Of a stretch of 32,000 bases of DNA, positions 2,888 to 31,443 are shown piece after piece. The notes under the pieces are model-generated. The model worked only from the letters and a program-made list of their open reading frames with translations, ran no database searches and was not told the origin of the DNA. The stretch comes from Candidatus Paracaedimonas acanthamoebae (GTDB taxonomy: Bacteria > Pseudomonadota > Alphaproteobacteria > Caedimonadales > Caedimonadaceae): assembly GCA_000743035.1 (NCBI GenBank), contig CP008936.1:480001-512000 (forward strand). The letters run 5' to 3'. The number at the start of each line of letters is the position of its first letter. Positions within the stretch are counted from its first letter, which is position 1. Made by a program: the position numbers and the translations under genes.

Positions 2888-2890
2888 CAC

Positions 2891-3434: not shown

Positions 3435-3790
3435 TTCTTGATAAGATCTATAAAACGATCATAATGGACAAGCCTAGGGAATAAATGGCGATGATAACGA
3501 CATAAGTCCAGATAAAAGTATTTAAAACAGGCCATTCCAGATTGATGATAAGCAATTAGAATTGTGAGAACTTCAGATAATGTTAAATGCCCTTCTCTGC
3601 GGCGCCTTATCGAATGGTCAGATAGTAATTGCTTCTTATACCAAGGCTCAAAGCCTTTACAAAAGTTATCGACACAATAAAACAATTTATCGTAATTTAT
3701 CACCATTGAGGTAGCTCCCTATTTTTTCAAATCGAGTTTACCTCAATACCCCCAATACTTTAACTATTATTCCTTATCCACAGTTCGGGT
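3435..3790 (-). pseudogene. IS982-family transposase, N-terminal remnant plus left end
   Basis: MVINYDKLFYCVDNFCKGFEPWYKKQLL...LTLSEVLTILIAYHQSG...FKYFY is a typical IS982 N-terminus. It is cut at 3434/3435 by the IS3 end, so the tail of ORF 3389-3706 is IS3-derived. Confidence 0.7.
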
Positions 3791-4713: not shown

Positions 4714-7700
4714 CTAAACCGAAGGAGGCTCACATTTAACAATAGCTCGAACATCACTCTGCTTGTCACTAACCATTTTTGCTAAATGCTTGATTGTTGG
4801 ATTAGAGAAGCATTCACTAATTGAGAGTGAAACTCCATAATGTGCTTTAATACGTAGAGTTACTTTATTAAGTAGTAAGGAGTGTCCTCCAAGTTTGAAG
4901 AAATTATCTGTAGTTCCTACTTGTTTTACATTAAGAATCTCAGACCAAATCTTGCATATTTCTTCTTCAACCTTATTTTTAGGTTCCTCGCTTGCAACTG
5001 CATCTATTAATTCTTGCTGTTGTATAGTCGGTAGCTTCTTTCGATCAATCTTACCATTAACTGTAAGAGGGAAGTTATCAACTTGTATGAATTTTGTTGG
5101 GACCATGTATTCGGGGACTTTTTGTATAAGATAATTCTTTATGTTTACAAATAGTTCTCTATTTGATTTTTCACCTTTGGCTTCATCACGTATCTTTATG
5201 TAGGCAATTAAACTACACTCACCTGCGGCATTAGTATTGCAAATGACTGCAGCTTTTTCTATTAACATGTTGAGATTAAGCAGACTCTCGATTTCACCTA
5301 GCTCAACTCGAAACCCCCTTATTTTTATTTGATGGTCGCGGCGTCCTAAGTATTCAATTGTACCAGTACTGCAGTATCTTGCAAGATCCCCTGATCTATA
5401 CATTTTACTGCTCTTATTGCAATCTGTACCAGTTTCTGAGGAAAATGGGTCAGTAATAAACCTTTGTTCTGTCAATTCAGGTCTGTTTAAATAACCATCA
5501 CTAACCCCATCTCCTCCTACATACATCTCTCCTATAACTCCTTCAGGTACTGGGGTGAGGTTGTCATCAAGAATATAAATTTTAGTATTATCTAATGGAG
5601 CACCAACTGGAGAATAAGGAGATCTTGAGTCTATGTGGTTTTTAGTAAGTTTTAAATAGGTTGAGTAAATAGTAGTTTCGGAAATGCCGTACATATTTGT
5701 CAGTTGTTGGTTTTTATCATGATAAGCATTCCACCACCACTCAAGCTTAGAAACTTCCAACTTTTCTCCGGCAAGAATAATATGCCGCAATTTGAGGTTT
5801 TTACGGAAATTAGATTGATTTGCAAGTATGAGAGAATCAAATGATGAGGGGGTTTGTGTTAAGATGGAAACTTCCTCTTTTTCAAGAAAGCTTAGAAATG
5901 CTTGAGTATCTTTTTTGATCTCGGTAGGTACAATAACTAGTTCCCGGCCATAAAGCAAAGCTCCCCATATTTCCCATACAGATAGGTCGAAAGTAAACGA
6001 GTGGAAAAGGCAAAAAGTATCTTCCTTATTAAAGTTGAATAAATGCTCACATGCACGGAATAAAGAAATCACATTTTTATGGCTAATAAGGGAGCCTTTA
6101 GGAAGGCCAGTTGACCCAGAAGTATAAATAATATAGGCGGTGTTATCTAGGGAAAATGATAATTCTAGATTTTCCAATGGCTGTTTTTCTATTTCTTCGT
6201 TATTGCCATCTAGGGTTATAATGATATTTTCATATGATTCATATCGATCTTTAAAAGAATTATTTGTTAATAATAATTCTACATTAGCGTCTTTGAGTAT
6301 AGAATCTATCCTATCCAGAGGATAAGAAGGATCTATAGGAACGTAGGCTGCTCCTGTTTTCATAACCGCTATCATAGCAATAATCAATTCAATAGAACTT
6401 TCTAAGCTTATAGCAATAAGTTTGCCTTTATTTGCTCTTTTCGTAATAAGGTAATGTGCGAGCTGATTTGATCGCTCGTTTAGCTGGCTATATGTTAAGG
6501 TACGACCATTAAAACGAAGACAATTCCTGTGAGGATATTTAGAAACTTGGTCTTCAAATATCTTAATTATATTTTCTTCCGGAAGATTAAAAGATAAATA
6601 CTCATGATTAAACTTCTGAAGAATATTATTTTTCTCTTCCTGTGAGAGTATAGGTAATATACTTATCTTACTACCAACATTATCAACAATACTGTAAAGA
6701 AGAGTTATGTAACTCTGCAGAAGATTAGAAATAGTATATTCCTTGAATAAATCTTCTGCATATTCTGCTTGAATTTCTAGCTGAGATTCTTGTTCTTGTA
6801 TAAAGATGGTTAAATCAAACTTAGAATAACTTCTTCCTTCCTCAGTTATTTTTGTCTTTATACCATCAAGATGTAAGAATTTATTCCAATCTTCTCTTGC
6901 AGTAAATAAAAGCTGGTATAAGGGGTTGCGATTTAATACACGGGGGATATTAATTCTCTTCACAAGCATATCGAAAGGAACATCTTGGTTGTCCTGAGCT
7001 GATGATAGAGTTTCTTTTAATGCTTCTAATACTTCTAAGAAGCTCATTTCTTCGCGTAAGACTAGGCGCAGAGGCAGCGTATTCATGAGCAAGCCAATTA
7101 ATTTGTCAGTGCCAGCATATACTCTACCTGAAACTGGCGTTCCTATGATTAAATCATTCTGATGTGTATAACGATAAACCAATACATAGAATGCTGAGAG
7201 TAAAACAGTGAATAAACTTGTATGATATTTTTCTGAGAGCTTTCTTAGTTGATTGGTTAGTTGCTGAGGAATAGCATGAGTAATAGTTTTACCACTATAC
7301 GATAAGGTTTCTGGTCGCTCAAAATCAGGCGATAAAGTAGTCAGATCTGCAGCCTGAGAGAGATGCTCTTGCCAAAAGCTAATTTGCCGTTCCATGGTGC
7401 TTGGTTTGAGAAATTGCCTAAACCAAGACGAATAGGCTTTATAAGTAAATGATGCTTCTGGAAAAGAGAGGGAAGGAACTTTTCTCAGCTTATTATATGT
7501 TTCAGAGAGCTCATCCAGAAATAAAGTTATTGATTGCCCATCAAGAATAATATGATGAAAATTTAGAACTAAAATATGATGATTTTCATCTATTTTAATA
7601 AGGCCTGCTTTAAAAAGAAATGGCTTAGTTAAATCAAACGTATGAAAAATAGTTTCATTAATTAAGCGCTCAAGAATTTTACTTTTAGAGCTACCATTAT

Positions 7701-9966
7701 AACTTGAAATATCATCATAGAAAATATCAATTGGTTCAATTGAGCTAAAATCTTGTATAAGTAATCCTTCGATCTCTTTAAAAAAAGTCCGTAAAGCGTC
7801 ATGCTTGATAACAAGAGCTTTTATAGAAGAAATTAAAGCTTCAGAGTTTAAATCACCAAATAAATCAATGCTGAAAGGTAAGTTGTATACTCTTTTTTCT
7901 GAGAGAAAAGAATCTAAAAACCACAAACGTTGCTGTGAAAAATTGGCTGGTATAGAATTAGAACCTTGAGGCTGGTTTGCTAAATTAAGCTCTTGTTCTA
8001 CCCAGTTTTCAATAAGATAGTTAAGTGTTTGAGCTATTGAATTATTAGAAGAGAATACAATAGAAGATGGAATTGTTTGCAATAAATCACGATGGATTCT
8101 TGCTAAGAATAAAGTCAACTTTACAGAATTGAATCCTAGACTAGTGAGACTCTTTTCCAAATCTTGTTGATTAAGAGAGATACCCAAAATATGTGAAGCT
8201 AACTGAAGAAGGTAGCTGCTCAACAATTTTTTTCTAGTTTCTAAAGTACAGGTAAAAACATTAGAAGATATCTGAGGTTCAGGTATAAGCATATCACTGC
8301 TAAAGCCGTCTTCTTGCGCCACAATAGAAAGCTTATGCTCTAAATAAAGTTTTTTACATAATTGTCTTTGTACCTTCCCGCTAGAAGTTTTTGGGAGGCT
8401 TCTCTCACGAAGTAAAACAATTTTATAAGGCACTATTTCATGATTTTCATAGAGTTGCTTTCTAATTAAATTATAAAGCTTATTAAAATCTCGAAAATGG
8501 CGATGGACTTCTTGGACAACAATTATGTTCGCTTCATGCCCATCATTTTCTATAGAGAAAACAGCGCAACTATTGCTCAATAAGGCAGTATGGCTATTTG
8601 AGGTTGTTTCTTCAATATCTTGGGGGTATATGTTTTGGCCATTTAAGATAATTAAGTCTTTCAACCGACCGCTAACATAAAGATTATTATCAGCGTCTAA
8701 AAAGCCGAGATCTCCTGTTTTTAAGTATTGCTTATTATTTTCTACTAGAGTAGCAAAGAAAGTCTCTTTTGTGATCTCGGGTTTTCCCCAATAGCCTGCG
8801 GCGATGCTTGATCCATATAGCCAGATCTCTCCTTCTTCATAAGGTTGGCATATTGCTCTAGTGGTAGGATTTACGATAATTAATTCATGATCTTTAGCAG
8901 CTTGGCCACAATTTATAAGCCCCTGTGGATGTTCATCTGTTTTATGTAGACTAATTTTCTTTTTAGATGCAACAAAAAGTGTTGATTCTGCAAGGCCATA
9001 GGCAGGATATAAAGAGAAAGGGTTAAATCCTGCTGTAGCAAAATTTTGGATAAAGTTCTCCATAACTTTATTACTTATAGGTTCTGCACCGTTAAAGACA
9101 ACTTTGAGAGAACTTAAATCTAATTCTTTTATTTGCGAGTCAGTGATAACTTTTGAGCATAAATCAAAAGAAAAATTTGGTGCTCCTGTTATAGTAGCTT
9201 TTTGCTCCGTTATTATTTTTAGCCATTTAAAGGGTTCTTGCATGAATGATTGGGGTGACATGAAGCAGCATTTAAATCCACAAAATAAAGGAAATAATGT
9301 ACCGAATATAAGCCCCATATCATGGTAAGAAGGTAACCAGCTAACCATAACATGTTCATCCAAAGGTATTTCATCCTGAATAACATCCTTAATAAGCACA
9401 AGGTTTGTCATAATATTTTCGTGTGAAATAATAACCCCTTTTGGTTCTCCTGTCGAACCTGAGGTATATTGTAAGAAGGCTATTTTATTTTGTCTGTCTA
9501 AGGTTAGAAGATTGGCTTCGGTATCAATGAAATTCAAAAAACTAACATCCTCAATAAATATCAAAACTTCACCACGCGTTGTTAACAAACTAGTATCAAA
9601 ATTATTGAGAGATTTCTGAGTAATAATAAATTTGGCTGCGCATGAGTTTTGGATAGCTTGTACTCGTGTTGCTCGTTTGTTATTAGTTGGTAAATATACG
9701 GGGACAGCAACTGCATTTGCGGCGAGGCAGGCTAGGAAAGAAATAATATAGTCTATACCCTGAGGCAATAAGATTAAAACTCTTTCATTTGCGCAATTAT
9801 TATTTTTAAGCTTGTTTGCTAATATTGAAGTTCTTTCATAAAGCTCTTTATATGTAATGGTTTGTATTATGTTATCATGGTTATAAAAAACATATGCTTC
9901 TCTTCGAGGTGTATGTTTCGCATGATGGTGAAGACTCTCTAAAATTGTTTTTTTTAATGTATTCAT
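4714..9966 (-). CDS. NRPS lipo-initiation module: FAAL - ACP - C - A - PCP (1,750 aa), no TE, R or E domain
   Basis: FAAL motifs YTSGSTGEPKG, WLPSYHDMGL, GAPNF, KTGDLGF, GRLKDLIILNGQNIYPQDIE (aa about 1-550). Carrier 1 LGFNS (Ser614). C domain QQRLWFL and HHIILDGQS (aa 804-812). A domain YTSGSTGLPKG, NMYGISETT, GEMYVGGDGVSDGY, YRSGDL, GRRDHQIKIRGFRVELGEIE, NGKIDRK. Carrier 2 LGGHS. Confidence 0.93.
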   Translation of the reverse strand: MNTLKKTILESLHHHAKHTPRREAYVFYNHDNIIQTITYKELYERTSILANKLKNNNCANERVLILLPQGIDYIISFLACLAANAVAVPVYLPTNNKRATRVQAIQNSCAAKFIITQKSLNNFDTSLLTTRGEVLIFIEDVSFLNFIDTEANLLTLDRQNKIAFLQYTSGSTGEPKGVIISHENIMTNLVLIKDVIQDEIPLDEHVMVSWLPSYHDMGLIFGTLFPLFCGFKCCFMSPQSFMQEPFKWLKIITEQKATITGAPNFSFDLCSKVITDSQIKELDLSSLKVVFNGAEPISNKVMENFIQNFATAGFNPFSLYPAYGLAESTLFVASKKKISLHKTDEHPQGLINCGQAAKDHELIIVNPTTRAICQPYEEGEIWLYGSSIAAGYWGKPEITKETFFATLVENNKQYLKTGDLGFLDADNNLYVSGRLKDLIILNGQNIYPQDIEETTSNSHTALLSNSCAVFSIENDGHEANIIVVQEVHRHFRDFNKLYNLIRKQLYENHEIVPYKIVLLRERSLPKTSSGKVQRQLCKKLYLEHKLSIVAQEDGFSSDMLIPEPQISSNVFTCTLETRKKLLSSYLLQLASHILGISLNQQDLEKSLTSLGFNSVKLTLFLARIHRDLLQTIPSSIVFSSNNSIAQTLNYLIENWVEQELNLANQPQGSNSIPANFSQQRLWFLDSFLSEKRVYNLPFSIDLFGDLNSEALISSIKALVIKHDALRTFFKEIEGLLIQDFSSIEPIDIFYDDISSYNGSSKSKILERLINETIFHTFDLTKPFLFKAGLIKIDENHHILVLNFHHIILDGQSITLFLDELSETYNKLRKVPSLSFPEASFTYKAYSSWFRQFLKPSTMERQISFWQEHLSQAADLTTLSPDFERPETLSYSGKTITHAIPQQLTNQLRKLSEKYHTSLFTVLLSAFYVLVYRYTHQNDLIIGTPVSGRVYAGTDKLIGLLMNTLPLRLVLREEMSFLEVLEALKETLSSAQDNQDVPFDMLVKRINIPRVLNRNPLYQLLFTAREDWNKFLHLDGIKTKITEEGRSYSKFDLTIFIQEQESQLEIQAEYAEDLFKEYTISNLLQSYITLLYSIVDNVGSKISILPILSQEEKNNILQKFNHEYLSFNLPEENIIKIFEDQVSKYPHRNCLRFNGRTLTYSQLNERSNQLAHYLITKRANKGKLIAISLESSIELIIAMIAVMKTGAAYVPIDPSYPLDRIDSILKDANVELLLTNNSFKDRYESYENIIITLDGNNEEIEKQPLENLELSFSLDNTAYIIYTSGSTGLPKGSLISHKNVISLFRACEHLFNFNKEDTFCLFHSFTFDLSVWEIWGALLYGRELVIVPTEIKKDTQAFLSFLEKEEVSILTQTPSSFDSLILANQSNFRKNLKLRHIILAGEKLEVSKLEWWWNAYHDKNQQLTNMYGISETTIYSTYLKLTKNHIDSRSPYSPVGAPLDNTKIYILDDNLTPVPEGVIGEMYVGGDGVSDGYLNRPELTEQRFITDPFSSETGTDCNKSSKMYRSGDLARYCSTGTIEYLGRRDHQIKIRGFRVELGEIESLLNLNMLIEKAAVICNTNAAGECSLIAYIKIRDEAKGEKSNRELFVNIKNYLIQKVPEYMVPTKFIQVDNFPLTVNGKIDRKKLPTIQQQELIDAVASEEPKNKVEEEICKIWSEILNVKQVGTTDNFFKLGGHSLLLNKVTLRIKAHYGVSLSISECFSNPTIKHLAKMVSDKQSDVRAIVKCEPPSV

Positions 9967-18559: not shown

Positions 18560-19234
18560 TTAACTGCTACTCCCCTGCTTATAAGCCTCATTAAGTAGTT
18601 CGCATTCATGCAAGGCCGCATCCATAAAGAGTTGTTGTATTTCTGTTTTTTCTGCTTCAGAGATTGTTTGAATGAGTGCATCAAGCGATTGGATGATTCT
18701 TATGGTTTGTTGTTCTGCATCCAAGGAAGTGCAATGCTTGATGAATTGCTTATAAGGATGATTGTGAGCATTGAGTTTTAGGCAACGTTTGTGCAAGTGA
18801 GTGGTAAGCCAGAACCTTGGCAAGATGGCGGCAAGGATGGGAAGGAATAGCCTTTTTTCAGTTAAGGTGTTTAGGAAGGCTATATATTCTTCGCATGCAG
18901 CCGTTGCCTTGTATATTTTCCCCTTAAATTTATCCAATTGAATGCTTAAACTTCCTGCTGCCGTAAGAGAAAATTGTGCATTTTGAGTAAATAGAAGGGT
19001 AATACATCTTGGATAGTTGAGCTTTGATAGAAGAATTAAATTTTCAGAAAGAGAACGCCAGACACGCTCTTGCTGATTAAGGAAGAAAGCAAAATGTACT
19101 TCTTTTAAAGCCTCATTAAACAAATGTTCATAAAAAGAGTGCTTGAGAGCAGCCTTATGAAGATACTGAAGAGAACTCTCGACATCTTGTAGGAACGGAG
19201 AATCAAACTTTACTACTTCTAGGGAGTTATGCAT
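18560..19234 (-). CDS. Hypothetical all-alpha protein
   Basis: The ATG at 19234 is preceded by AGAGGG at 6-7 nt. The ORF track start at 19270 would overlap the upstream RNA-like region. No motif recognised. Confidence 0.5.
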   Translation of the reverse strand: MHNSLEVVKFDSPFLQDVESSLQYLHKAALKHSFYEHLFNEALKEVHFAFFLNQQERVWRSLSENLILLSKLNYPRCITLLFTQNAQFSLTAAGSLSIQLDKFKGKIYKATAACEEYIAFLNTLTEKRLFLPILAAILPRFWLTTHLHKRCLKLNAHNHPYKQFIKHCTSLDAEQQTIRIIQSLDALIQTISEAEKTEIQQLFMDAALHECELLNEAYKQGSSS

Positions 19235-19312
19235 CAGATACCCTCTTGAATATGAGGTAAGTGGATGCACAATACATAGTGTGGTTTCCTGAAAAGATTC
19301 TCTCTTTTAAGT

Positions 19313-20708: not shown

Positions 20709-21332
20709 ATGGATGCTCCCAAGCGCTTAATGTATACACGGCAGCTTACAAATATGCCACGTACTGTATTCTGTAGAAAATATGACGTGAGTCCAAGTTC
20801 TTTAGCAAAGTGGGAGCTAGGTGCAAAAGAATTGTCCCTTAGGAGTGCAAGAAAGTTATCCTTAATTTTTGAAAAAGAAGGGATTAGCGTAACTCCTGAG
20901 TGGTTATTGAATGGCGAGGGAGAAGCTGCTCGCAAAGCTAGAACTATTTCTAATAGAAAAGGCGCAGAGGCCATCGCTACTGAAAAGGATTTAATTGAAG
21001 AAGAGCTTCAAAAATTTGAAGCCTTCCATGAGAATATACTCTCTTTGAAGATTTATGATGATTCCTGTTTTCCAATTTATATCCCCGGGGATTATGTTGC
21101 AGGTGTGGCTTTAGAAGGGGAAAACATGCTCACGCTCAGAGAGAGGATATGTATCGTCCAATTACTAAATGGTGTTATATGTGTAAGAAAGATAATGGAT
21201 TATCAAGATGTAGATAATACGTTCGATTTAGAATGCATCAATCCATATACTGAGATAGCTCAAAAGACACTTAAGGCTGCCCAGCTAATTTCTGCGGCAC
21301 CTATTACTTTTTTTAGAAGGGTTTCTTCATAA
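20709..21332 (+). CDS. CI/LexA-like repressor: XRE-type HTH plus S24-like C-terminal domain
   Basis: N-terminal RQLTNMPRTVFCRKYDVSPSSLAKWELG. The C-terminal beta-rich domain has DDSCFPIYIPGDYV (GDSM-like) and ICVRK (Lys box-like). Confidence 0.7.
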   Translation: MDAPKRLMYTRQLTNMPRTVFCRKYDVSPSSLAKWELGAKELSLRSARKLSLIFEKEGISVTPEWLLNGEGEAARKARTISNRKGAEAIATEKDLIEEELQKFEAFHENILSLKIYDDSCFPIYIPGDYVAGVALEGENMLTLRERICIVQLLNGVICVRKIMDYQDVDNTFDLECINPYTEIAQKTLKAAQLISAAPITFFRRVSS

Positions 21333-22736
21333 TTTGATACGCAGCCATAGGGGAATGAAAAAGAAGGTAACTGCTGCTCCTAAGCTAATTAAGCATAAAC
21401 TGTTAAAGAAGTTTGTGTAAAATCCTAGATTCTCTATACCTGCTGTATCCCCTTGAGAGGTAAGTGTCGCAAGCTTACCTGAAAAATACTGGGCTATTCC
21501 GATGGAAAAGTACCAGATCCCAACATAGAAAGAAGCATATTTTTTAGGCGCTATCTTAGTAATAGCAGACATAGCGGTAGGCATTATACATATCTCTCCA
21601 ATAACAAAACACATCAATGCTAAGATTAAAAACCAGGGAGACACTAAACCTTGTGTTGCTAAGCGAGTTGATATCCATAAAACAAGAAAGCCAATACTTA
21701 CCATACCAAGACCGGCACTCATTTTAGTAAAAATGGAGTATGAGATTTTATACTTTTTTAGGTAACGCCATAATAAAGCTAATATGAATCCTAGCATTAA
21801 ATTGAAAAGTGGATCAATGGCTTGGAAAAACGTTGTTGGAATAGTAGTGATGCCAATATTAGAGAATCCCTTGAGGGTGCGGTCTAGATAGTTTTCTGCA
21901 AATAAAACAAGGGAGTTACCAGATTGCTCATAAAGGATAAAGAATGAAACAGTGATCAGAATCACTAGACCAAAAACTTTAATATTTTTAGTCTGATTTT
22001 CTGCATGAAATAGGGTCGCTAATGCAACGAGGATACCACTTATTAAAATGAAACTGATAATAAAGGTTGGTTGGATAGTAGCGTAGTTGAAAAAGAAATA
22101 AACAATCGCAATAATAATAGGCACCGATAATAATTTCAAGAGATCTTGACCTAGTTTGGCTATGCTAAGCTTTATGTATTTGCCAAAGAAGCCTAAGAAA
22201 AACAGTGCCAAGCAATCTGCAATGAGCATCATAAGAAAAGAAACTTTCCAATTAAGACACTCTCCTAAAACCGCACACATCACAGTACCAAACAGGGTTG
22301 CCAAATTCATAAGGGCATAAAAGAAAGTGAATTGTGCATCTCGGTTGAGAGAGTCTTTACCAATTATTTGACTTAACAAGGGTAAGATTGAAGGACGGAC
22401 TAAACCGCGCCCAACAAGAGCAAAGCTTGCTCCTAGGAAAAAATAAGTAAAGTCTAAGTATAATAAAAGAGAGCCAATAGCTGAACATAAAAATCCTATA
22501 AAAATTGAATTTTCTTGCCCTAGGTATTTGTCAGAAATCCAACCCCCAACTAAGGGAGTCAAATAGGACAGCATCATTAAAGATCCATAGGTTGCAAAAG
22601 CATTTTGATTTGAATAAAGAAGCTCTTTCACAAGAAACAGGACAACCATAGAACGTAGGCCATTAAAAACAAATCGCTCAATAGCGGCTAATAGAGTGAT
22701 TAACGCAATATTCTTACCTCTAATGAGAGAGATCAT
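21327..22736 (-). CDS. POT/PTR2-family (MFS) proton-dependent oligopeptide transporter
   Basis: ERFVFNGLRSMVVLFL...LTPLVGGWISDKYLGQ signature and about 12-14 hydrophobic spans. ATG at 22736 (TTG at 22742 in the ORF track). It overlaps the upstream gene by 17-23 nt. Confidence 0.8.
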   Translation of the reverse strand: MISLIRGKNIALITLLAAIERFVFNGLRSMVVLFLVKELLYSNQNAFATYGSLMMLSYLTPLVGGWISDKYLGQENSIFIGFLCSAIGSLLLYLDFTYFFLGASFALVGRGLVRPSILPLLSQIIGKDSLNRDAQFTFFYALMNLATLFGTVMCAVLGECLNWKVSFLMMLIADCLALFFLGFFGKYIKLSIAKLGQDLLKLLSVPIIIAIVYFFFNYATIQPTFIISFILISGILVALATLFHAENQTKNIKVFGLVILITVSFFILYEQSGNSLVLFAENYLDRTLKGFSNIGITTIPTTFFQAIDPLFNLMLGFILALLWRYLKKYKISYSIFTKMSAGLGMVSIGFLVLWISTRLATQGLVSPWFLILALMCFVIGEICIMPTAMSAITKIAPKKYASFYVGIWYFSIGIAQYFSGKLATLTSQGDTAGIENLGFYTNFFNSLCLISLGAAVTFFFIPLWLRIKL

Positions 22737-24162
22737 TAGCAATATTCCTTATGCTTGGGGGCAATGTAATAGCAAAGATATGAAAAATTTCTTCAACCTG
22801 ACGCTTACTTATATTAAGCAGCCTTAGTCCATTTAAACTCAAATTTGATAAATCCTTAAACTGTTTCCAAATATCGGTAATTTGTAATAAATGCTTACAA
22901 AGAGGCGAGAGATCAAGAGAGTCACTACTTTTCTCTAAAGCTTTAGGAAAGTATAAAAGATGCATTGCAAGATTTTGTTGGAGTTGGTCTTCGATTTCTA
23001 AGGGTGTGTCCTTATTAAGATTTAAATGCTTTTCAAAACCAAAAATTCGGGCACATTGAAAACATACCATAGCAGATGGATGAGCCAAAAAATCTGGACT
23101 TTTAAGAAAGGAAATATAGCCTTCTTCAAGAGGTTGCTTAAAATTGTCAATTTTAAGAAAGAGGAGAGCAATAAAGTTTTTGAAACACGTAAAATCTTCT
23201 TCTGGTATGGGGAAGTGAGAATGGATAAAGTTAGAAGAAAATACTTCCACCTCGTTCAAGAATTGCTCCATTGTAATACCAAAATAAGGATCAAGTTTAT
23301 AAGCCTTGTTTGGCTGTTCTAGTAAATAGCCGTGAGACCTATGAATAAGCTCAGTATTAATGCCATATCTGTTCCAAGCGCCAAGAATTTGTCTCCAATG
23401 GTGTTCTTGGCGATTACCAATAACATATATAATTTTGTCTGCTTCTTGCTTATAAATGCGCTCATAAATGGCGGCCATATCTATGCTTGAGTAAGCGAGA
23501 AATTCATCATTTCCTTTTAAGAAAACAGAGTAAGAGTTTCCTAAAGGAACCATGATATTGCCCTGATGCGTTTCAATAAGATTTTTAGCTTTAAACAGAG
23601 ATATTACTGTTTCTATATGAGGGATGTAGCGACTTTCACCACTGTATTGATCGAAGCTAACATGTAAAAAGTCGAGCATTTTTTGAATTTCGGAAAGGGT
23701 AATGGCGGATATTTTATCGCGCAAAGAAACATAATCACCTTGAGCTTGCTGAAGAGTAATTGCTTCTTGACGAACTTTAGCATCTAATTTTTGATCTTTT
23801 GCTGCGCGTAAAGCAACATCCTTCTGAATTTCGAATATTAGCTTAGGATTAGCTTGTAAGCTCTCAACCACTTGATGAAGATTTTGAGAGCGCTCTTTTA
23901 AACCATACAATAAACAGCCCATTTGAGGTCCGTGATCGCCATAGTGAATATCGCCGATGGTCGTGAAGCCGCTAAATTTTAGAAGCCTTTTTAGACTTTC
24001 GCCAAGAATTGTTGTCCTTAAGTGCCCTAGATGCATAGGTTTAGCAATGTTAGGCCCACAGTAATCGATGATTATCTTTTTATCTGTTTTGCCTTTAGTA
24101 AAAAATTGCTGTGTTCCTTGCTTTTCTAACAGCTCAAGCTTTTCAATAAGGTTATCCCCCAT
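22720..24162 (-). CDS. Arginyl-tRNA synthetase paralogue lacking the N-terminal domain (480 aa)
   Basis: ArgRS-type catalytic core: IIIDYCGPNIAKPMHLGHLRTTILGESLKRLL, HYGDHGPQMG, FDQYSGESRY, YSSIDMAAIYER, IIYVIGNRQEHHW. The HIGH box starts at residue 44, versus about 120-130 in canonical ArgRS. Confidence 0.75.
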   Translation of the reverse strand: MGDNLIEKLELLEKQGTQQFFTKGKTDKKIIIDYCGPNIAKPMHLGHLRTTILGESLKRLLKFSGFTTIGDIHYGDHGPQMGCLLYGLKERSQNLHQVVESLQANPKLIFEIQKDVALRAAKDQKLDAKVRQEAITLQQAQGDYVSLRDKISAITLSEIQKMLDFLHVSFDQYSGESRYIPHIETVISLFKAKNLIETHQGNIMVPLGNSYSVFLKGNDEFLAYSSIDMAAIYERIYKQEADKIIYVIGNRQEHHWRQILGAWNRYGINTELIHRSHGYLLEQPNKAYKLDPYFGITMEQFLNEVEVFSSNFIHSHFPIPEEDFTCFKNFIALLFLKIDNFKQPLEEGYISFLKSPDFLAHPSAMVCFQCARIFGFEKHLNLNKDTPLEIEDQLQQNLAMHLLYFPKALEKSSDSLDLSPLCKHLLQITDIWKQFKDLSNLSLNGLRLLNISKRQVEEIFHIFAITLPPSIRNIANDLSH

Positions 24163-24171
24163 CTGTCATAC

Positions 24172-25113
24172 CTATATCTCTGTAATTTTTTTTAGTTCTT
24201 TATAAACGGCACCTTGTAAAGAAATAAATTCTATTATTGTTTTCTCTATACTTTTTTGGTGTTCAGGTTCAATGAATTCATTTTTGAAGGTAAAGTTTTT
24301 AGAAAAATCACCATGACCAAATGCAAGATCTGCTTCTTCGTGCTGTCGAAATACTTTGAGAGCGTCCCTCGGAATAAGATTAAGGTCTTCCATTCTTTTC
24401 CATTCTCTCAATCTTTGTTTTATATATCCTGGAGAATTAGAAGGGCTTTCAGTAATACTGATGCAAAGGCTGTAACTCGTGAAATCATCCTTTGCAAGTT
24501 GGCTCAAAAAACTTATTAAATTTTGAGTTTCTTTTAAAGGGCCGGTTGCTTGTATTTTTTCTTGTGATATTCCAGCTTTCCGGAGACCGTAATATAAAAA
24601 TTGTCCATGCCAACGTTCTTCTTCTAAGTAGTCATCCAGGTAACTGAGTTCCTCAAAGCTGAGATCATTTTCTAATGCTGGCATGATATGAGCGACAGCA
24701 GAATTAATAATATGGTATGATTCAAATAATGATCTTAGGAGAGTTTCTTTGTTTAAATTTGGTGCTGTATCTAACCCCTGCTTCTGTAACATAGCATGAC
24801 GCATGGCTCTCCCGGTTGCTAGGGTATGCTCATGGTAACTGTTCCATGGTAAGGATTGTGCTTCCTTTAATTCCAGAAAGCCAAGTTCATATAAATATAA
24901 TAAAATATCATCATGCTTGGCGCTGAAAGCTTGATCTGTATGACTTTTAGCGTTATTTATTTCTGCAGGTTGGTTAATTTGTTGAAGAGTCTCATTGATT
25001 GAATTAACTGCATTTTTAAAATGGATGGTGCGCCATCCAGAGTTAAAACCGATAATTTGGTCATCCTTTAATATAGGTAAACATAAGCTGGAAAATTCAA
25101 ATCTCAGAGCCAT
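24172..25113 (-). CDS. All-alpha protein with ExxH-type motifs: possible heme-oxygenase-like diiron (HDO/PqqC/TenA-fold) enzyme
   Basis: About 313-317 aa. LEEERWHGQF, YHEHTL and FRQHEEADLAFGHGDF suggest carboxylate/His metal ligands on helices. The fold assignment is a guess. ATG at 25113 after GGGGGAG (TTG at 25125 in the ORF track). A 9-nt gap separates it from the ArgRS-like gene. Confidence 0.6.
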   Translation of the reverse strand: MALRFEFSSLCLPILKDDQIIGFNSGWRTIHFKNAVNSINETLQQINQPAEINNAKSHTDQAFSAKHDDILLYLYELGFLELKEAQSLPWNSYHEHTLATGRAMRHAMLQKQGLDTAPNLNKETLLRSLFESYHIINSAVAHIMPALENDLSFEELSYLDDYLEEERWHGQFLYYGLRKAGISQEKIQATGPLKETQNLISFLSQLAKDDFTSYSLCISITESPSNSPGYIKQRLREWKRMEDLNLIPRDALKVFRQHEEADLAFGHGDFSKNFTFKNEFIEPEHQKSIEKTIIEFISLQGAVYKELKKITEI

Positions 25114-25220
25114 CCACTCCCCCAATAAATAGAACTATCCCTGTGTCTTACCTCTCCCTAAAGAGGATTAATATTAGGCTGTATCTTATTTGATGAGGGG
25201 GTACTAAGTTTTGCATAAAG

Positions 25221-25287
25221 TAGGCTAGTACCATCAGCGACCTCATATATCATTTATGTCATATACAAGCTAATGGTACCTAGCCTA
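25221..25287 (-). promoter_or_regulatory. Long imperfect hairpin between the sORF and the downstream operon
   Basis: TAGGCTAGTACCATCAGC (25221-25238) pairs with GCTAATGGTACCTAGCCTA (25269-25287). That is about 17 bp with one mismatch and one bulge, and a 30-nt loop. No clear T-run follows. Confidence 0.5.
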
Positions 25288-25324
25288 ATAATAAAGCTAC
25301 TAAACTGTCAACATTATTGTTAGG

Positions 25325-25432
25325 TCAATCCCGTGCTAAAGGATCAAAGAATTCTTTCTCTACACATATTTCTATTTCAAACGGCTTAGTATTTTCTTTA
25401 GGTTGACAAGTAGTTGTATTAGATATCTTCAT
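25325..25432 (-). CDS. 35-codon sORF: MKISNTTTCQPKENTKPFEIEICVEKEFFDPLARD
   Basis: The ATG is preceded by AAGGAG at 7 nt and by a near-consensus promoter. It lies below the ORF-track length cut-off. Confidence 0.5.
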   Translation of the reverse strand: MKISNTTTCQPKENTKPFEIEICVEKEFFDPLARD

Positions 25433-25464
25433 AACTATTCTCCTTTTCTAGTTTGGTCATTCAC

Positions 25465-25492
25465 ATGTTAGCAATGATCTTTTATATGTCAA
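25465..25492 (-). promoter_or_regulatory. Near-consensus sigma70 promoter (TTGACA - 16 nt - TAACAT)
   Basis: Read on the minus strand: gagTTGACAtataaaagatcattgcTAACATgtg, about 30 nt upstream of the sORF ATG. Confidence 0.55.
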
Positions 25493-26483
25493 CTCGTTCG
25501 CATTTTAATAAAATTTAGTTGACAAGTATATGTGTATATTTGGTGGCGTTGAATATGCGTATTTAACATGAATTAAATGCTTTTTATTGTACTTATTATG
25601 TCAAAATTATAAAAGGAAGTAGATAAGTCCGATTTGAAGATAGATTATTAACATTTGCTTGGTTGTAAAACAGCTACTTAAATGTTTTTTTGAATTAAAA
25701 GAGCAAGGATCGTGGGAGTGATCAGAGTAATCTTTTAGTCGTCCTTGTCAAACTTTGATGTACTAGTATCTAAAGCGTCCCCTAACTTACTATATGGATC
25801 TTTAGTAATGACTATGGCAGCCCCCTGCTGCCTAAAGAAATGCTATCAAAATATTACTATATAATTCAAGGATATAAGATTAATGGGTTAACTATTCTAC
25901 GATTGAGTGACTATCAATTTTCCACATATGACCTAAAGCAAATCTATCTTTGCTTCCCTGGAGAAAGCGCATCTATCTAAATTATAGTAAAACTCTATTG
26001 ATGTGCGTGTTCAACTGTTGATTCCTGAACTTGCATTTTTCTTCTTATTACTTTTTGGCAGAGTGGCCCGAAGAATTTTTTATCATTCAATCTCCTTTAT
26101 TGGAATTCAAACAATCCTGGACTGTTATTTCATGGATTTAGCCTTGGCGCGTCTTTTTTCAAGCATCTTTCGACGTTAAAGCGACTCCCGAAAAGAAGCT
26201 TGAAAGACTCCCCTTATGCCAAGGCTTTCTTAACCCATGAAGGGTCGAAATGGTTTCGGCCTCAAACATAGGAGAATTGCAATAAAAAAGAATCAACCCA
26301 CACACAGTATTTATCAAGAGCTTAAAAGCAACCTCTTAAATGGGTCTAATGGTAAATTGAATTCTATGAATATTCATGATCAATTTTAGAAGGTGATTTC
26401 TTTATTAGTCCATCATTGATTATGGTTGCATTCTTAAAATACTAAGCTTTATGCTTATTTGTAGCTGAATAGAGGAAGAAAAT

Positions 26484-26996
26484 ATGAGTCTCAGCATAAG
26501 GTTCCATGGATCTTATATTGCTTTGTTAGCAGAATTATTGCTACATTCCCTATCTTTTAGCTCTGGCATTCATAAAGATCTTAGGGAATATGAGTGGGAA
26601 GATATCTATCAAATAGGACTAGTCTCAAACGCTGCTTATTATTACTTTAATTGTGCAAACGATGTTAAAACTAGCATGGAAGAGTTAGAGCAAGCTGGTT
26701 GGGCATGTAAATTGATAGGAGATGGTCCTTTTCATGTCATACGAGCGGAGTATGGTCCTCTTGTTGTTTTAGGCTTTAAGGGCACAACTAAGACAGAAGA
26801 TTATGCCTCCGATTTAAATGCAATCAGATTAACTGTCACAGAGAGTGAACAACAAGGGGTCGCCCATCGCGGAATTTATTCTTATACAAAAAAATTACCT
26901 GCTTCTATTAATGCTCTTTTTAATCCAGATGATGGTGATGAGCTTCTTGTTCTTGCTGGGCACAGTCTAGGTGGAGCAGTAGCGCAATTAAAGGGA
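26484..26996 (+). pseudogene. Class-3 (fungal-type) lipase, N-terminal part truncated by the IS3 end
   Basis: VVLGFKGTTKTEDYASDL, GVAHRGIY and the nucleophile elbow AGHSLGGAVAQ. The IS terminal TG begins at 26997, 7 codons after the Ser. Confidence 0.75.
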
Positions 26997-27041
26997 TGAT
27001 CTTGCTACAATAAAGCGGACACAAGGAACCGAGATGGGTTA

Positions 27042-27344
27042 ATGTTATTGAAAGGAGAGAACATGACCCAGAAATACGATAAAGAATTTAAAATTAATGC
27101 GGTTAAAGTTTATTTGAGTAATGACAAGAGCATTGAGAAGATCGCTTTAGATTTAGGGATTTCGCGTGCCAGTTTAGGGCACTGGATTAAACAATACCGG
27201 CGTGAGGGAGAGAGAAGTTTTCCTGGCAGTGGCCATGTTGTTGAGGAAGAATTAAGAGCGCTTAAGCGGGAGCTTTATCTTGTTCGCCAGGAGCGAGATA
27301 TCTTAAAAAACCACCTAAATGGCACCCCTTTCCCTAATAAATAG
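27042..27344 (+). CDS. IS3-family OrfA (HTH) with its 3' end replaced by IS110 sequence
   Basis: Identical to 3087-3389. It diverges from the IS3 consensus after ...RQERDILK at the A-run at 27305-27310. Confidence 0.85.
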   Translation: MLLKGENMTQKYDKEFKINAVKVYLSNDKSIEKIALDLGISRASLGHWIKQYRREGERSFPGSGHVVEEELRALKRELYLVRQERDILKNHLNGTPFPNK

Positions 27345-27540
27345 AAACTCGCGCTCGTTAACTGCTAAAGTTGAGCTATCAAAGAGAGCGGCCGTCTGCT
27401 TATTGGTGGATTACCCCGTTAAAAAACATGGTCCAGGGAGTACAACGAACCCGGCATTGGAGGTACAAACCCCGTTTAGGAAAGTGATTTATTCGTTACC
27501 CTGCTCTTTGATTCTATAGATAAACAAGGAGAAGAGGTAA
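27311..27540 (+). ncRNA. Candidate bridge (seek) RNA in the IS110 left end
   Basis: 230-nt relatively GC-rich non-coding end 5' of the recombinase gene. Two homologous modules (ATTGGTGGA..ACCCCGTT at 27402-27420 and ATTGGAGGT..ACCCCGTT at 27456-27476) are each followed by a junction-matching string. Confidence 0.4.
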
Positions 27541-27543
27541 GTG

Positions 27544-28908
27544 ATGACTCAATCTAACAGACAATCCAGTATGCCAATTATTCATCAAAATGCTGCTGGG
27601 ATTGATATTGGTGCTAAGTTTCACGTTGTTGCTGTAGGGAGTGATAAAGCAAAAGAACCAGTTCGTACGTTTCAAAGTTTTACCACAGATTTACATGCTA
27701 TGGCAAAATGGCTTAAAAGCTGTGAGGTCACCAGCATTGCTATGGAATCCACAGGTATTTATTGGATTCCTGCTTTTGAGATCTTAGAGAATTATGGTTT
27801 TGAGGTATTTTTAGTTAATCCACGAGAAGCTAAAAATGTTCCTGGACGTAAAACAGACGTCAATGATGCGCAATGGATTCAACGGTTACATCAATTTGGT
27901 TTGTTACGTGCTAGCTTCAGACCAGAAAAACAAATTACTGTGCTACGTGCTTATATTAGACAACGTGAACGTATGCTTGAATTCAGAGCCTCTCATATCC
28001 AGCATATGCAAAAAGCTTTAATGCAAATGAACTTACAGTTGCATCATGTCGTATCGGATATAACGGGAGCCACAGGCATGAAGATCATTCGTGCGATTAT
28101 GAATGGTGAACGTTGCCCTGCTGTATTAGCAGAACATAGAGACATACGTTGTAAGGAATCCATTAAAACTATTGAGGAATCCTTAAAGGGTAATTATCAA
28201 GAAGAGCATTTGTTTTCTTTAACTCAAGCTGTTGAATTATTCGATTATTACACACAAAAAATTAATGAGTGTGATCGTCGAATAGAAGAGACATTAAGCT
28301 TGCTTGGAAAAGATAATAAGTTGCCTGATCAACCTCTACCCAAAGCCAGGCATCGCACTAAACAACCTAATAGCTTAAGCTTTGATGTAAGAGCATCCCT
28401 TTACCAAGCATTAGGAATGGACTTAACACAAATACACGGTGTTGGACCTTCATTAGCCTTAAAATTAATATCAGAATGTGGCACTGATATGTCTCGCTGG
28501 CCGAGCAGCAAGCACTTTACTTCTTGGCTATGTCTTTCTCCAGGGAATAAGGTATCAGGAGGGAAAGTATTATCATCACGAACACGGCGTTCCTCAAGTC
28601 GTGCGGCAGCAGCATTAAGATTGGCTGCTGTAACAATTGGAAAGACAAATACGGCTCTTGGTGCGTTTTATAGACGACTCTCGGCTCGCATTGGTAAATC
28701 AAAGGCAATTACTGCAACAGCTAGAAAAATGGCAGTATTATTTTTTAATGCTCTGCGTTATGGAATGCAATATGTTGATCCAGGTGCCAATTACTATGAG
28801 GCACGATATCAAAAGCGGGTTCTTGATAACTTATCAAAGCGAGCTGCTGCTTTAGGTTATATATTGCAAGAGAATAAAATGCAGGACTTGGTACAGGGAG
28901 TTTCTTAG
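27544..28908 (+). CDS. IS110-family DEDD transposase/recombinase
   Basis: Identical to the copy L protein. The stop TAG at 28906-28908 is 2 nt from the element end. Confidence 0.92.
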   Translation: MTQSNRQSSMPIIHQNAAGIDIGAKFHVVAVGSDKAKEPVRTFQSFTTDLHAMAKWLKSCEVTSIAMESTGIYWIPAFEILENYGFEVFLVNPREAKNVPGRKTDVNDAQWIQRLHQFGLLRASFRPEKQITVLRAYIRQRERMLEFRASHIQHMQKALMQMNLQLHHVVSDITGATGMKIIRAIMNGERCPAVLAEHRDIRCKESIKTIEESLKGNYQEEHLFSLTQAVELFDYYTQKINECDRRIEETLSLLGKDNKLPDQPLPKARHRTKQPNSLSFDVRASLYQALGMDLTQIHGVGPSLALKLISECGTDMSRWPSSKHFTSWLCLSPGNKVSGGKVLSSRTRRSSSRAAAALRLAAVTIGKTNTALGAFYRRLSARIGKSKAITATARKMAVLFFNALRYGMQYVDPGANYYEARYQKRVLDNLSKRAAALGYILQENKMQDLVQGVS

Positions 28909-28956
28909 GAAAGCAGTTGCCATCTTCTCCGAACCCCGAGGCAAAGGTACGAATTC

Positions 28957-29832
28957 ATGAAGCATCATACCACTTTATTTTCCTTGGATCAGATGGCGCA
29001 AGTCTTAGGGGTTTCTCGCAGTGGGTATTACGATTTTATTAAAAGGAGTCCCAGCAAGAGAGAACTGGAGAACACTGAGACTGTTAAAAGAATGAGGACT
29101 ATTTTTGAGGAGAGCCGAGAAACTTATGGCAGTCCTCGGATCCATGCAGAACTTTGTGCTCAGGGAACTTTTTGTTCTCGAGTTAAAGTCGCTCGATTGA
29201 TGCAGAAGAATGATATCCAAGCCAAGATGTATAGGAAGTTTGTTAAAACAACAAAACGTTCAGAAAATATCACTCGTCCAACCCAGGATCTCGTTCAGCA
29301 GAATTTTTATTCTCCTCTTCCTAATAGAATTTGGGCCGCAGATATTACTTTTATTGCCATCAATAGAACCTGGGCTTATCTGGCTATTATTCTTGATCTA
29401 TTCTCTCGAAAAGTGGTGGGAATGGCTTTGAGTGATCACATGAGAAGTTCTTTAATTTTAGCAGCACTTAATCAAGCTCTCTTATTAAGGAGACCTCCTT
29501 CAGGGCTTATTCATCATTCTGATATGGGGAGCCAATATACAAGCAATAACCTTTATGAAATAGCTCAAACTCATGGAATAAAACTGAGTCATGGAAAAAC
29601 AGGATGTGCTTATGACAATGCTGCAATGGAGAGCTTCTTTCATACGCTTAAAACAGAGCATGTCTATTTTAAGAACTATAAAACTTTAGAAGAAGCAAAA
29701 ACCGATATCTTTGAATACATATTCACATTTTATAACTCTAAAAGGAGGCACTCGACACTCAACTATCAAAGTCCAAATCAGTGGGAATACAATCATTACA
29801 AAAATCAAACCATCTCAGTTCACAATGTCTAA
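28957..29832 (+). CDS. IS3-family transposase OrfB (DDE/rve core)
   Basis: Identical to 599-1474. Its ATG overlaps the reconstructed orfA stop (ATGA). Confidence 0.95.
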   Translation: MKHHTTLFSLDQMAQVLGVSRSGYYDFIKRSPSKRELENTETVKRMRTIFEESRETYGSPRIHAELCAQGTFCSRVKVARLMQKNDIQAKMYRKFVKTTKRSENITRPTQDLVQQNFYSPLPNRIWAADITFIAINRTWAYLAIILDLFSRKVVGMALSDHMRSSLILAALNQALLLRRPPSGLIHHSDMGSQYTSNNLYEIAQTHGIKLSHGKTGCAYDNAAMESFFHTLKTEHVYFKNYKTLEEAKTDIFEYIFTFYNSKRRHSTLNYQSPNQWEYNHYKNQTISVHNV

Positions 29833-29850
29833 ATTTTTGTAGCAAGATCA

Positions 29851-30357: not shown

Positions 30358-31128
30358 TTAATCTCTTTGAAAGATACTGTTGAATAAACGTGCTAGGACC
30401 TCTTTGAGAATGTTAGATTTCTCTGCTCCTACTAAACTGGCACGTTCTGTTTTTACATCATCCTCACTTCCATCTTCAGAAATAAAGACATTATAGTGAT
30501 CTTTATTTGTACTATCTTCATAAACAATATTCATTGATAGAGTTCCTGGAACATAAGTGAGGACACGGTGAATGACATCTGTTGACATTATGACAACAGC
30601 ATTCTCTCTAGCCTTTTCAATTTGATCTTGATGCAAATAAGTTTGGCCAGAAACATCAAAGCCTTTTTGAAGCTTATTCACTTTAAAGATGGTGTATTTG
30701 CTGTCATCCTGAGAGGCATCACTTTTAATATAAAGAGCATGTCGATAACCTCCATTAACAATATAGCTCTCAAATAACTTTGGATGGTCATGAATACTTT
30801 CCTCTAGTATTTGTGTTGAGCTGTCTATTGGCCAATAATGTAGTCTTAATTTTTCAGCAGACTTAAGATAACTAGGTGCTGGTATATTTATACGGTAAAA
30901 GCCAGATTCATTCTTCTCAACAACAAGTTCATCTTGATGTTCTTGCATGTACTTGTGAGAATAATCTATTAAAGCGAGCCATTCTTCTTTGCTTTGTCTG
31001 CTTCTAGTGACCTCACTAATGCTGTGTTCTTCAGTGCTAATAGGGCTTGCTGTTAATGTACTTGTGTTAAGAAGTAAGCTTATATAAACAACAGCTTTTA
31101 AGATGGGTTGATATTTAAAATTACGCAT
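30358..31128 (-). CDS. Hypothetical secreted protein (signal peptide; possible cupin-like HxH core)
   Basis: N-terminal AVVYISLLLNTSTLTASP. LHYWP...SIHDHPKLFESYIVNGGYRH is weakly cupin-like. Confidence 0.55.
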   Translation of the reverse strand: MRNFKYQPILKAVVYISLLLNTSTLTASPISTEEHSISEVTRSRQSKEEWLALIDYSHKYMQEHQDELVVEKNESGFYRINIPAPSYLKSAEKLRLHYWPIDSSTQILEESIHDHPKLFESYIVNGGYRHALYIKSDASQDDSKYTIFKVNKLQKGFDVSGQTYLHQDQIEKARENAVVIMSTDVIHRVLTYVPGTLSMNIVYEDSTNKDHYNVFISEDGSEDDVKTERASLVGAEKSNILKEVLARLFNSIFQRD

Positions 31129-31443
31129 AATATAATCTCCTTGTTAATAATCAATTTAGAAAGGTTGCAGCCTTTCTGACGTTGTAAGAGAAGGCCACCA
31201 TGGTCTTCTCTTTTCTTGTTTTCTGCTCATGCACTTTTCACAGAACACTCACAGTAACAGCTTGATGATGTTAAGAATTTTTATGTGGTTCTATAGGACT
31301 GTAGACATAGGACGAAGTCTGAAAGGTTGTCTGATAATATATTTTAGTCTATCTTCTTTCATGCTAGCTTGGTCATGAGATAAGAATGTCTAATAAATAG
31401 AACCTTCCCATTAGCCTAATGGTGGTTATTTTATAAAAAGGGT

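Follow-up and report, generated by a model that had tools for sequence, protein, structure and literature searches.

A conserved small gene beside a predicted diiron oxidase gene in Candidatus Paracaedimonas acanthamoebae: a probable precursor peptide of a RiPP-like pathway

We analyzed a 32,000-nt stretch of the Candidatus Paracaedimonas acanthamoebae genome (contig CP008936.1, positions 480,001 to 512,000; hereafter the window), focusing on a 35-codon small open reading frame (sORF; 25432-25325, minus strand) that encodes the peptide MKISNTTTCQPKENTKPFEIEICVEKEFFDPLARD and lies upstream of the gene for a predicted heme-oxygenase-like diiron oxidase (HDO). The coordinates, strand, start, length and sequence of the sORF exactly matched those given in the initial annotation of this DNA. 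It belongs to a cassette of five genes and about 4.5 kb, which comprises a peptide of 29-47 residues, the HDO, a paralogue of arginyl-tRNA synthetase (ArgRS), a transporter and a regulator. As well as sequence comparison can support such a claim, the sORF is a real, translated and conserved small gene under purifying selection, and we consider it likely that its product is the precursor (substrate) peptide of a pathway resembling those of peptides that are ribosomally made and post-translationally modified (RiPPs). The earlier suggestion that it might be a candidate precursor or scaffold peptide was supported by in-frame conservation in five clades, by purifying selection and by tandem multicopy occurrence in one relative.

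Conservation of the small gene with its cassette

Homologues of the HDO formed only three clusters among 5.8 billion proteins, and all three were found in the same cassette with an sORF upstream. One of them was represented by a 98% identical locus (L001), and the other two, both 50% identical, by L002 (sORF product MKAHTVKATKKIKITIEAGHDFFDPLARD) and by L003-L008 from Alphaproteobacteria bacterium 41-28 (L003 product, MKTNKQLGLNKPLKIEIKAGNEFFDLLARN). The gene order was common to all these loci, which together with the window are called clade 1 below. A second clade was recovered by a search with the ArgRS-like protein (38% identity, 436 aa); it was located on plasmid-like contigs with ParA/ParB and Tra genes, and contained the same five genes with sORFs encoding MSKKTNINKKPFKIKIVSGIESFDPIARD, MNKKIDINKKPFKIKIVSGVEAFDPIARD and MIKRFNLNNKPFKVKIISGVEAFDPIARD. 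An exhaustive profile search revealed 124 remote relatives of the 313-aa HDO, and the loci of three of them were looked up. In L021, the HDO gene was accompanied by an ArgRS-like gene, an MFS gene and an sORF ending in ...RIKILRQRFDPCSTI. In L022, which had HDO, methyltransferase and ArgRS-like genes, five tandem sORFs (...NIVYIRVIVETEVFDPVARV and similar), each with a Shine-Dalgarno (SD) sequence, were repeated with a 167-nt period (2490-3342) between the methyltransferase and ArgRS-like genes, and a sixth, more divergent sORF (...SISIWVFSPDREFDPLATI; 245-385) was directly upstream of the HDO gene. The L019/L020 contigs showed HDO and methyltransferase genes only, and ended before any downstream sORF array could appear. 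Finally, a metagenome scan added L018, in which an sORF ending in ...LIRVHFVPHNDLFDPLGRV preceded a 28%-identical HDO gene. Thus, 15 distinct sORFs from five divergent clades occurred with an HDO gene, and also with an ArgRS-like gene wherever the contig was long enough.

Alignment of these peptides revealed that the conserved portion was the last ~20 residues, whereas the N-terminus varied freely. The family signature consisted of an alternating hydrophobic strand-like segment (h-x-h-x-h), 4-6 further residues and F-D-P-[LIVC]-[ASVG]-[RKT]-[DNIV]-stop. The last four residues were LARD, IARD, LARN, CSTI, LATI, VAKI, VARV, VVRV or LGRV, and position -2 was basic in 13 of the 15 distinct tails. 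The third positions of the tail codons varied freely while the residues were kept; for example, the tail Arg was encoded by CGG, CGC, AGA or AGG depending on the lineage. Over the last 20 codons, the proportion of synonymous differences (pS, 0.35-1.0) approached saturation, that of non-synonymous differences (pN) was 0.0-0.36, and dN/dS was 0.04-0.33 where dS was unsaturated. The reading-frame and substitution checks proposed in the initial annotation therefore both came out in favor of a coding gene, with the frame kept in all five clades. The peptide is hydrophilic and has neither a transmembrane segment nor a signal sequence. Pfam and NCBIfam searches with it and 12 relatives returned nothing meaningful.

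In L003, a decayed second copy (about 560-680; ...KVEITAEIEFFNLCSVRGVT followed by a stop) was observed upstream of the intact sORF. This copy lacks an in-frame start codon, and translation from an ATG in a frame shifted by one would meet a stop, so that it has the appearance of a duplicate that underwent a frameshift.

Predicted functions of the cassette proteins

The 313-aa protein had no Pfam or NCBIfam match at threshold (15.5 bits for PF14518 against a cut-off of 28.9), and a PDB sequence search with the close-family profile returned no match. Among 41 remote relatives, 28 matched Pfam Haem_oxygenas_2 (PF14518) at E <= 0.001. Residues E166, H169, E222, H258, D262 and H267 were invariant and H142 was near-invariant. 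The six invariant residues provide a full set of three His and three carboxylate ligands, with the same spacing as the metal ligands E86/H89/E143/H172/D176/H181 of MboA (PMC13185094). An AlphaFold2 model based on four sequences was unusable (pLDDT 47), and a 19-sequence alignment gave a model with a pLDDT of 83, for which Foldseek returned CADD, 3dde, PqqC, UndA and PolF with a probability of 1.0 (seven-helix heme-oxygenase-like fold). Judged by its alignment and model, the protein is an HDO of a divergent subfamily. The first ~85 residues were predicted to form a separate domain with 3-4 strands followed by helices, and relatives matched winged-helix families in this region. This domain could be a peptide-recognition element.

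In the ArgRS paralogue, only PF00750 passed the Pfam threshold (DALR, 17.6 against a cut-off of 22.3; no PF03485), and the score for TIGR00456, the argS equivalog, was 173 bits against a cut-off of 261.65. Canonical ArgRS matches all have three domains (Add-1, or Arg_tRNA_synt_N, at the N-terminus, the catalytic domain and the anticodon-binding DALR domain), whereas the paralogue is short of ~100 N-terminal residues; the missing Add-1 domain is the one that binds the tRNA D-loop. The HIGH motif and the Arg-binding Asp/Tyr-x3-Asp residues were kept in clades 1 and 2 (PNIAKPMHLGHLR, IIDY and AYSSIDMAA). In place of the KFKTRSG loop, which is the KMSKS equivalent, the paralogue had K-x-YK-x-DP-x-FG (the window protein reads KAYKLDPYFG), and it lacked the ...PERM end at the C-terminus. 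Separately, the L021 paralogue (2004-3443) had lost HIGH (YVTH) and both Arg-binding acidic residues, and L021 is the single clade whose only recovered tail (CSTI) has no basic residue. This may reflect co-variation of the ArgRS pocket and the peptide tail, although with n = 1 the case is anecdotal.

The six cassette transporters that were aligned all carried xxx(E/D)RFxFN on the first transmembrane segment instead of the ExxERFxYY motif of the POT family, so that the first Glu and the Tyr-Tyr were lost in six of six cassettes. POT proteins are normally proton-coupled importers of di- and tripeptides, and the degenerate coupling motif argues against a standard proton-driven importer here. The regulators (207-216 aa) had no detectable TPR-type peptide-sensor domain.

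Expression signals, stem-loop and genomic setting

The coordinates of the sORF, its parts, its expression signals and the other cassette genes are listed in Table 1.

Table 1. Positions of the sORF, associated signals and cassette genes in the window.
Feature	Coordinates	Strand	Remarks
HTH_3 (XRE-type) regulator gene, 207 aa	20709..21332	+	Convergent; position conserved in clades 1 and 2
POT/PTR2-family transporter gene	21327..22742	-	PTR2 domain present; degenerate ExxERFxYY motif
ArgRS paralogue gene, 480 aa	22720..24162	-	Without N-terminal Add-1 domain
Predicted HDO gene, 313 aa	24172..25113	-	N-terminal beta-plus-helix domain (modelled)
Outer stem, 3' arm	25221..25241	-	4-nt internal bulge; 25287-25270 pairs with 25237-25221
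Inner stem-loop/palindrome, CUUGUAUAU-GACAUAAAUG-AUAUAUGAG	25242..25269	-	Conserved; 28 nt
Outer stem, 5' arm	25270..25287	-	Window and L001 only
TTGACA 3' of the sORF stop	25306..25311	-	-35 of promoter-like site in other lineages
sORF, candidate precursor ('FDP-tail') peptide	25325..25432	-	ATG start, 35 codons + TGA, 35 aa
Tail codons F-D-P-L-A-R-D	25328..25348	-	F-D invariant, P near-invariant, four residues, stop
K-P-F-E-I-E-I-C-V codons	25361..25387	-	Conserved Lys and alternating hydrophobic strand-like segment; pattern in all five clades
11-mer GTTGACAAGTA, copy within the sORF	25402..25412	+	Judged non-functional as a box
Shine-Dalgarno AAGGAG	25440..25445	-	7 nt ahead of the sORF ATG
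sORF promoter-like site, TTGACA-16-TAACAT	25465..25492	-	TG before -10; identical in L001
11-mer GTTGACAAGTA, copy upstream of the sORF promoter	25518..25528	+	Lineage-specific

An AAGGA(G) sequence was present 6-7 nt 5' of the sORF in all six lineages of clades 1 and 2, whereas the promoter-like site of the window was not conserved as such in lineages other than L001. The initial annotation had ranked the promoter and SD of the sORF as the best in the window. This was partly correct: besides AAGGAG and the TG extension, the site was the sole one listed in the window scan with a perfect TTGACA as its first hexamer. However, its score (10/12) was shared by about 15 other sites (about 17 sites reached at least 10/12) and exceeded at 31108-31136 (11/12), and promoter-like sites occurred in this AT-rich window at a frequency expected by chance. 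For the second TTGACA, located 3' of the sORF stop, no matching -10 was called in the window scan, that is, no internal promoter between sORF and operon was seen there. In other lineages, a promoter-like site was found between the sORF and the stem-loop/operon (11/12 in L002, 10/12 in L003, and 9/12 with TG in L011 and L013).

The long hairpin reported after the sORF (25221-25287) was confirmed as a strong computed fold (-29.8 kcal/mol, z = -5.5; 0 of 200 shuffles as stable), but its conservation was limited to the inner 28 nt. Each locus of clades 1 and 2 had exactly one copy of this inner stem-loop, which invariably separated the sORF from the HDO gene and began 46-55 nt beyond the sORF stop (141 nt in L003). 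All nine pairs were kept across five distinct sequences. The three variable stem positions were one-sided transitions opposite U or G, and half of the 10-nt loop was invariant. Because any transition at these positions preserves pairing, the variation is equally consistent with an RNA hairpin and with a DNA palindrome, and the element may be either a regulatory RNA or an operator. It was preceded by TTGAC(A/T), which forms the promoter-like sites of L002, L003, L011 and L013; therefore, the stem-loop would be located at or just 3' of the predicted transcription start. In the window and L001, the outer stem replaced the -10 region found in other lineages. The stem-loop pattern was absent altogether from L021, L022 and L018. 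No U-tract followed the hairpin, whose tail reads CUUUAUGCAAAAC, no intrinsic terminator was called at 25221-25287, and an Rfam covariance-model scan of 24900-26500 gave 0 matches at E up to 1. The half-sites TGTATAT and ATATACA bear some resemblance to halves of the E. coli LexA box split by 10 bp; the domain of the cassette regulator is HTH_3 and not LexA. In several RiPP and microcin operons, a stable structure commonly separates the highly expressed gene for the peptide from those for the enzymes.

Some additional features of this region were observed. L003 had its own very stable hairpin directly after the sORF (826-900; -32.7 kcal/mol, z = -6.5), at a position unlike that of the outer stem of the window. 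UAGCCUA/UAGGCUA was common to both structures, which may derive from a small palindromic insertion element. In clade 2 (L009, 4013-4108; L011, about 6003-6098; L013, about 672-767), a 31-codon ORF started at the AGGAG of the stem-loop 3' arm and overlapped the start codon of the HDO gene at its end (ATGA). These two features suggest translational coupling to the HDO gene, gated by the stem-loop. This ORF was not conserved in clade 1, and the small ORF after the hairpin in the window (25148-25246) was rejected as a gene because it was not conserved across clade 1 and because its divergence from the L001 sequence was near-neutral.

The initial annotation had also considered a repeated 11-mer, GTTGACAAGTA, as a possible operator. 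It did occur exactly twice in the window, at both reported positions. However, the pair was statistically weak (at least two matches with at most one mismatch in 7 of 100 shuffles), the copy within the sORF already differed by one base in L001, and the box was absent from all compared lineages other than the window and L001. An operator role is unsupported because the box is lineage-specific and altered even in L001, and this candidate was rejected. The shorter 7-mer GTTGACA had four copies within 25306-25524 against seven in the whole window. These four alternated in orientation, two being -35-type hexamers and two, in the opposite orientation, the 11-mers. The cluster was specific to the window lineage.

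With regard to the genomic setting, two perfectly identical inverted copies of a 2,855-bp composite insertion sequence (IS; 581-3435 and 26996-29850), in each of which IS3-type orfA and orfB enclose a transposase gene of IS110 type, bound a segment of 23.5 kb. Within it are the cassette and genes for a non-ribosomal peptide synthetase (NRPS), an integrase and a ProQ/FinO protein. The layout resembles a composite transposon or an invertible segment. Together with the integrase gene, the bounding inverted IS copies point to mobile DNA. A class-3 lipase ORF (26484-26999), which covers positions 1-79 of the 140-position Pfam profile, ended at the IS edge just after its nucleophile motif, GHSLGG. 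Insertion of the IS appears to have truncated this gene, and the remainder was not found adjoining either IS copy. The NRPS gene (4714-9966, minus strand) encodes 1,750 aa of A-T-C-A-T type, with two AMP-binding, one condensation and two PP-binding domains. A second heme-oxygenase-fold gene (18560-19270, minus strand; 236 aa, TENA/THI-4/PqqC family, E = 5e-10) was observed about 1.4 kb past the regulator gene, and the conserved cassette of other lineages did not include it.

The cassette was extremely rare. Only one of 185,579 GTDB species representatives contained it (Alphaproteobacteria bacterium 41-28), a tblastn search of the plasmid collection gave no match, neither protein searches nor the stem-loop DNA pattern detected it in viral contigs, and the metagenome scan yielded L018 as the only new, remote locus. 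This rarity and the location on mobile DNA (plasmid-like contigs and the IS-flanked segment) explain why the sORF family escaped annotation. Neither the peptide nor the stem-loop is covered by any family of Rfam, Pfam or NCBIfam, and nothing in the searchable literature brought together a precursor peptide, an HDO and an ArgRS-like protein or other aminoacyl-tRNA synthetase (aaRS) paralogue.

Proposed pathway, alternatives and comparison with known systems

Several features of RiPP precursors were found for the sORF, including same-strand linkage to tailoring genes, purifying selection, a conserved part with a more variable last four residues, and multicopy occurrence. In the pathway proposed here, the strand-like K-P-F-x-I-x-I segment and F-D-P would serve as the recognition part, and the chemistry would take place on the last four residues (L-A-R-D in the window). 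The ArgRS paralogue would use ATP and its Arg pocket on the peptide. It could either grip Arg/Lys at position -2 and activate that backbone position, or transfer activated arginine onto the peptide, the latter being a PEARL-like (peptide aminoacyl-tRNA ligase) or EpmA-like function of independent origin. The HDO would oxidise the tail, by analogy with MboA and with the action of VarO on Arg, housekeeping peptidases would free a small product, and the transporter would export it. The sORF would be expressed from its own strong signals and the enzyme genes from a separate region with the internal promoter-like site and the 28-nt stem-loop; in the window lineage, the extra stable outer stem around the stem-loop would damp or process read-through. 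There are precedents for some of these steps. Arg is desaturated by the HDOs MboA, acting on Leu-Ala-Arg (PMC13185094), and VarO, acting on ribosomal Ala-Pro-Arg (PMC6511847). Release by housekeeping peptidases has likewise been proposed for thiovarsolins (PMC6511847), and aminopeptidase cleavage has been reported for fosfazinomycin. The tripeptide sequence of mangotoxin, Leu-Ala-Arg, recurs in the window tail (P-L-A-R-D), which we treat as a lead only because clades 2-5 do not keep LAR. Whereas a precursor role of the peptide appears probable, the specific scheme in which a class I aaRS paralogue was recruited to act on it, and the HDO then oxidises the tail to yield a small exported Arg-derived metabolite, would make the cassette the founding case of a new class of ribosomal natural product; this scheme is tentative, and we regard it as possible rather than probable.

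A number of observations weigh against a precursor peptide and this pathway. No PqqD match was obtained at E up to 10, and the cassette contained no recognisable RiPP recognition element and no protease. Remote HDO relatives in NRPS and phage contexts have a similar N-terminal domain, and no ORF with an FDP tail was found anywhere in those loci; thus, the domain is no proof of peptide binding. Instead of being hypervariable, the tail shows fair conservation, a pattern that would also suit a peptide with a regulatory or arrest function. How the ArgRS paralogue would act chemically on an internal Arg is not obvious, and the normal direction of POT transport is import. Since no internal promoter was called in the window, the sORF and the operon may share one transcript.

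The initial annotation had also suggested a leader peptide controlling the downstream operon; in such a cis-acting mechanism, ribosome pausing on F-D-P-L-A-R-D-stop would act through the hairpin, perhaps sensing arginine or the product. The conserved last ~20 residues would roughly span the exit tunnel, with the variable N-terminus beyond, and the sORF, which shares the strand of the operon, immediately precedes it in every case, with the conserved stem-loop following in clades 1 and 2 and no separate operon promoter called in the window. SpeFL, which ends in ...FDFHFFNAR-stop, is loosely similar to the FDP tail. However, the stem-loop, 46-55 nt past the stop (141 nt in L003), would be too distant for a ribosome terminating on the sORF (no systematic search was made for an alternative pairing with the 3' end of the sORF), and the spacer is A/T-rich whereas a rut site would be C-rich. 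L021, L022 and L018 lack the stem-loop pattern, and the five tandem paralogues of L022 are located after the HDO and methyltransferase genes; we know of no leader peptides that are found as five tandem paralogues. With multicopy arrays, an intervening promoter-like site in four lineages and a hairpin at this distance, control of the operon by a leader peptide appears very unlikely.

The strict co-occurrence of the peptide with its neighbors could instead mean that it stays unmodified. It would then either serve the HDO or the ArgRS paralogue as an activator or a stoichiometric subunit, in an MbtH-like manner, or be a signal that is imported by the POT protein and sensed by the XRE-type regulator. 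The presence of such a regulator and of a peptide-type transporter from an importer family would be in line with a signal. On the other hand, the five diverged tandem copies of L022 are more in keeping with a substrate than with a subunit, no signal sequence is present in the peptide, no TPR-type sensor domain was detected in the short regulator, and the proton-coupling motif of the transporter is degenerate in all six proteins aligned. We therefore consider an unmodified partner or signal unlikely. The small size and the strong SD and promoter-like signals might also be expected of a small toxin-like peptide, another suggestion of the initial annotation, or of a spurious ORF with fortuitous signals. 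But the frame and residues are conserved in five clades despite saturated synonymous change, and the peptide is hydrophilic, lacks a transmembrane segment, is always beside enzymes and shows no antitoxin-like arrangement. The comparative data effectively refute a toxin or a spurious ORF, whose probability we take to be negligible.

Among known systems, thiovarsolin biosynthesis (VarA/VarO; PMC6511847) shares with the cassette a ribosomal precursor and a heme-oxygenase-like enzyme that acts on the Arg of a short C-terminal-type motif (APR), as well as an MFS exporter, no dedicated protease and a very small peptide product (the HDOs were compared by description only). The var cluster differs in having YcaO/TfuA thioamidation and a repeat-type precursor, whereas the cassette has no YcaO/TfuA but a single-core FDP-x4 tail and the ArgRS paralogue. 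The mangotoxin enzyme MboA (PMC13185094) has the same E-x2-H ... E ... H-x3-D-x4-H spacing as the cassette HDO and a conserved Tyr four residues before the first Glu (Tyr82 in MboA, Y162 in the cassette HDO), but the two match only at the superfamily level (E = 0.0013 over 53 residues). In contrast with the ribosomal cassette peptide, the Leu-Ala-Arg substrate of MboA is made by ATP-grasp ligases, and MboA needs the reductase MboB (PMC13185094), which is absent from the cassette; furthermore, the Arg of the cassette peptide is not C-terminal, and clades 2-5 do not have LAR in the tail. PQQ biosynthesis resembles the cassette in that a tiny precursor gene with conserved residues near the C-terminus heads an operon with a heme-oxygenase-fold enzyme (PqqC). 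However, the radical-SAM PqqE, PqqB and the E-x3-Y motif are missing from the cassette, and PqqC is cofactor-less whereas the HDO keeps six ligands.

The pearlins (3-thiaglutamate) and fosfazinomycin (10.1101/338681, PMC13622209) are similar in combining a short ribosomal peptide with an enzyme of the aminoacyl-tRNA world, and in pearlin-type systems a small product is built at the C-terminus of the scaffold peptide, as is proposed here for the cassette. PEARLs are LanB-like and extend a phosphorylated C-terminus with aminoacyl-tRNA, whereas the cassette has a true class I ArgRS paralogue, an enzyme type that normally activates amino acids. No LanB-like PEARL was present in the gene content of the cassette loci of clades 1 and 2. 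Microcin C (mccA-mccB-mccC) is comparable in its very short ORF with strong signals, its hairpin, an adenylating enzyme and an MFS-type transporter, all of which are generally known features of the mcc operon. However, no ThiF/MccB-like (E1-like) adenylyltransferase domain was found in the cassette, and the obligatory C-terminal Asn of microcin C has a counterpart (Asp or Asn) in clades 1 and 2 only; because clades 3-5 end in Ile or Val, it is not a family feature. The arrest leaders SpeFL and TnaC are alike in size and in C-terminal conservation up to the stop, but differ in spacing, in the intervening promoter-like site and in the tandem copies. Overall, the cassette is of a known kind (a ribosomal precursor with tailoring enzymes), but its enzyme combination and peptide signature are apparently undescribed.

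If the peptide is indeed a substrate, it would represent an undescribed RiPP-like family, with a pair of HDO and ArgRS paralogue that is not known from any RiPP class, and would illustrate that a pathway may have as its key gene an sORF that falls below the cut-offs used in annotation. With about 4.5 kb and five genes, the cassette is small enough to be immediately testable. To the HDO superfamily, for which mostly free amino acids are known as substrates, it would contribute a peptide-directed member, and it would reveal a second independent route, besides PEARLs, by which translation-derived enzymes tailor ribosomal peptides.

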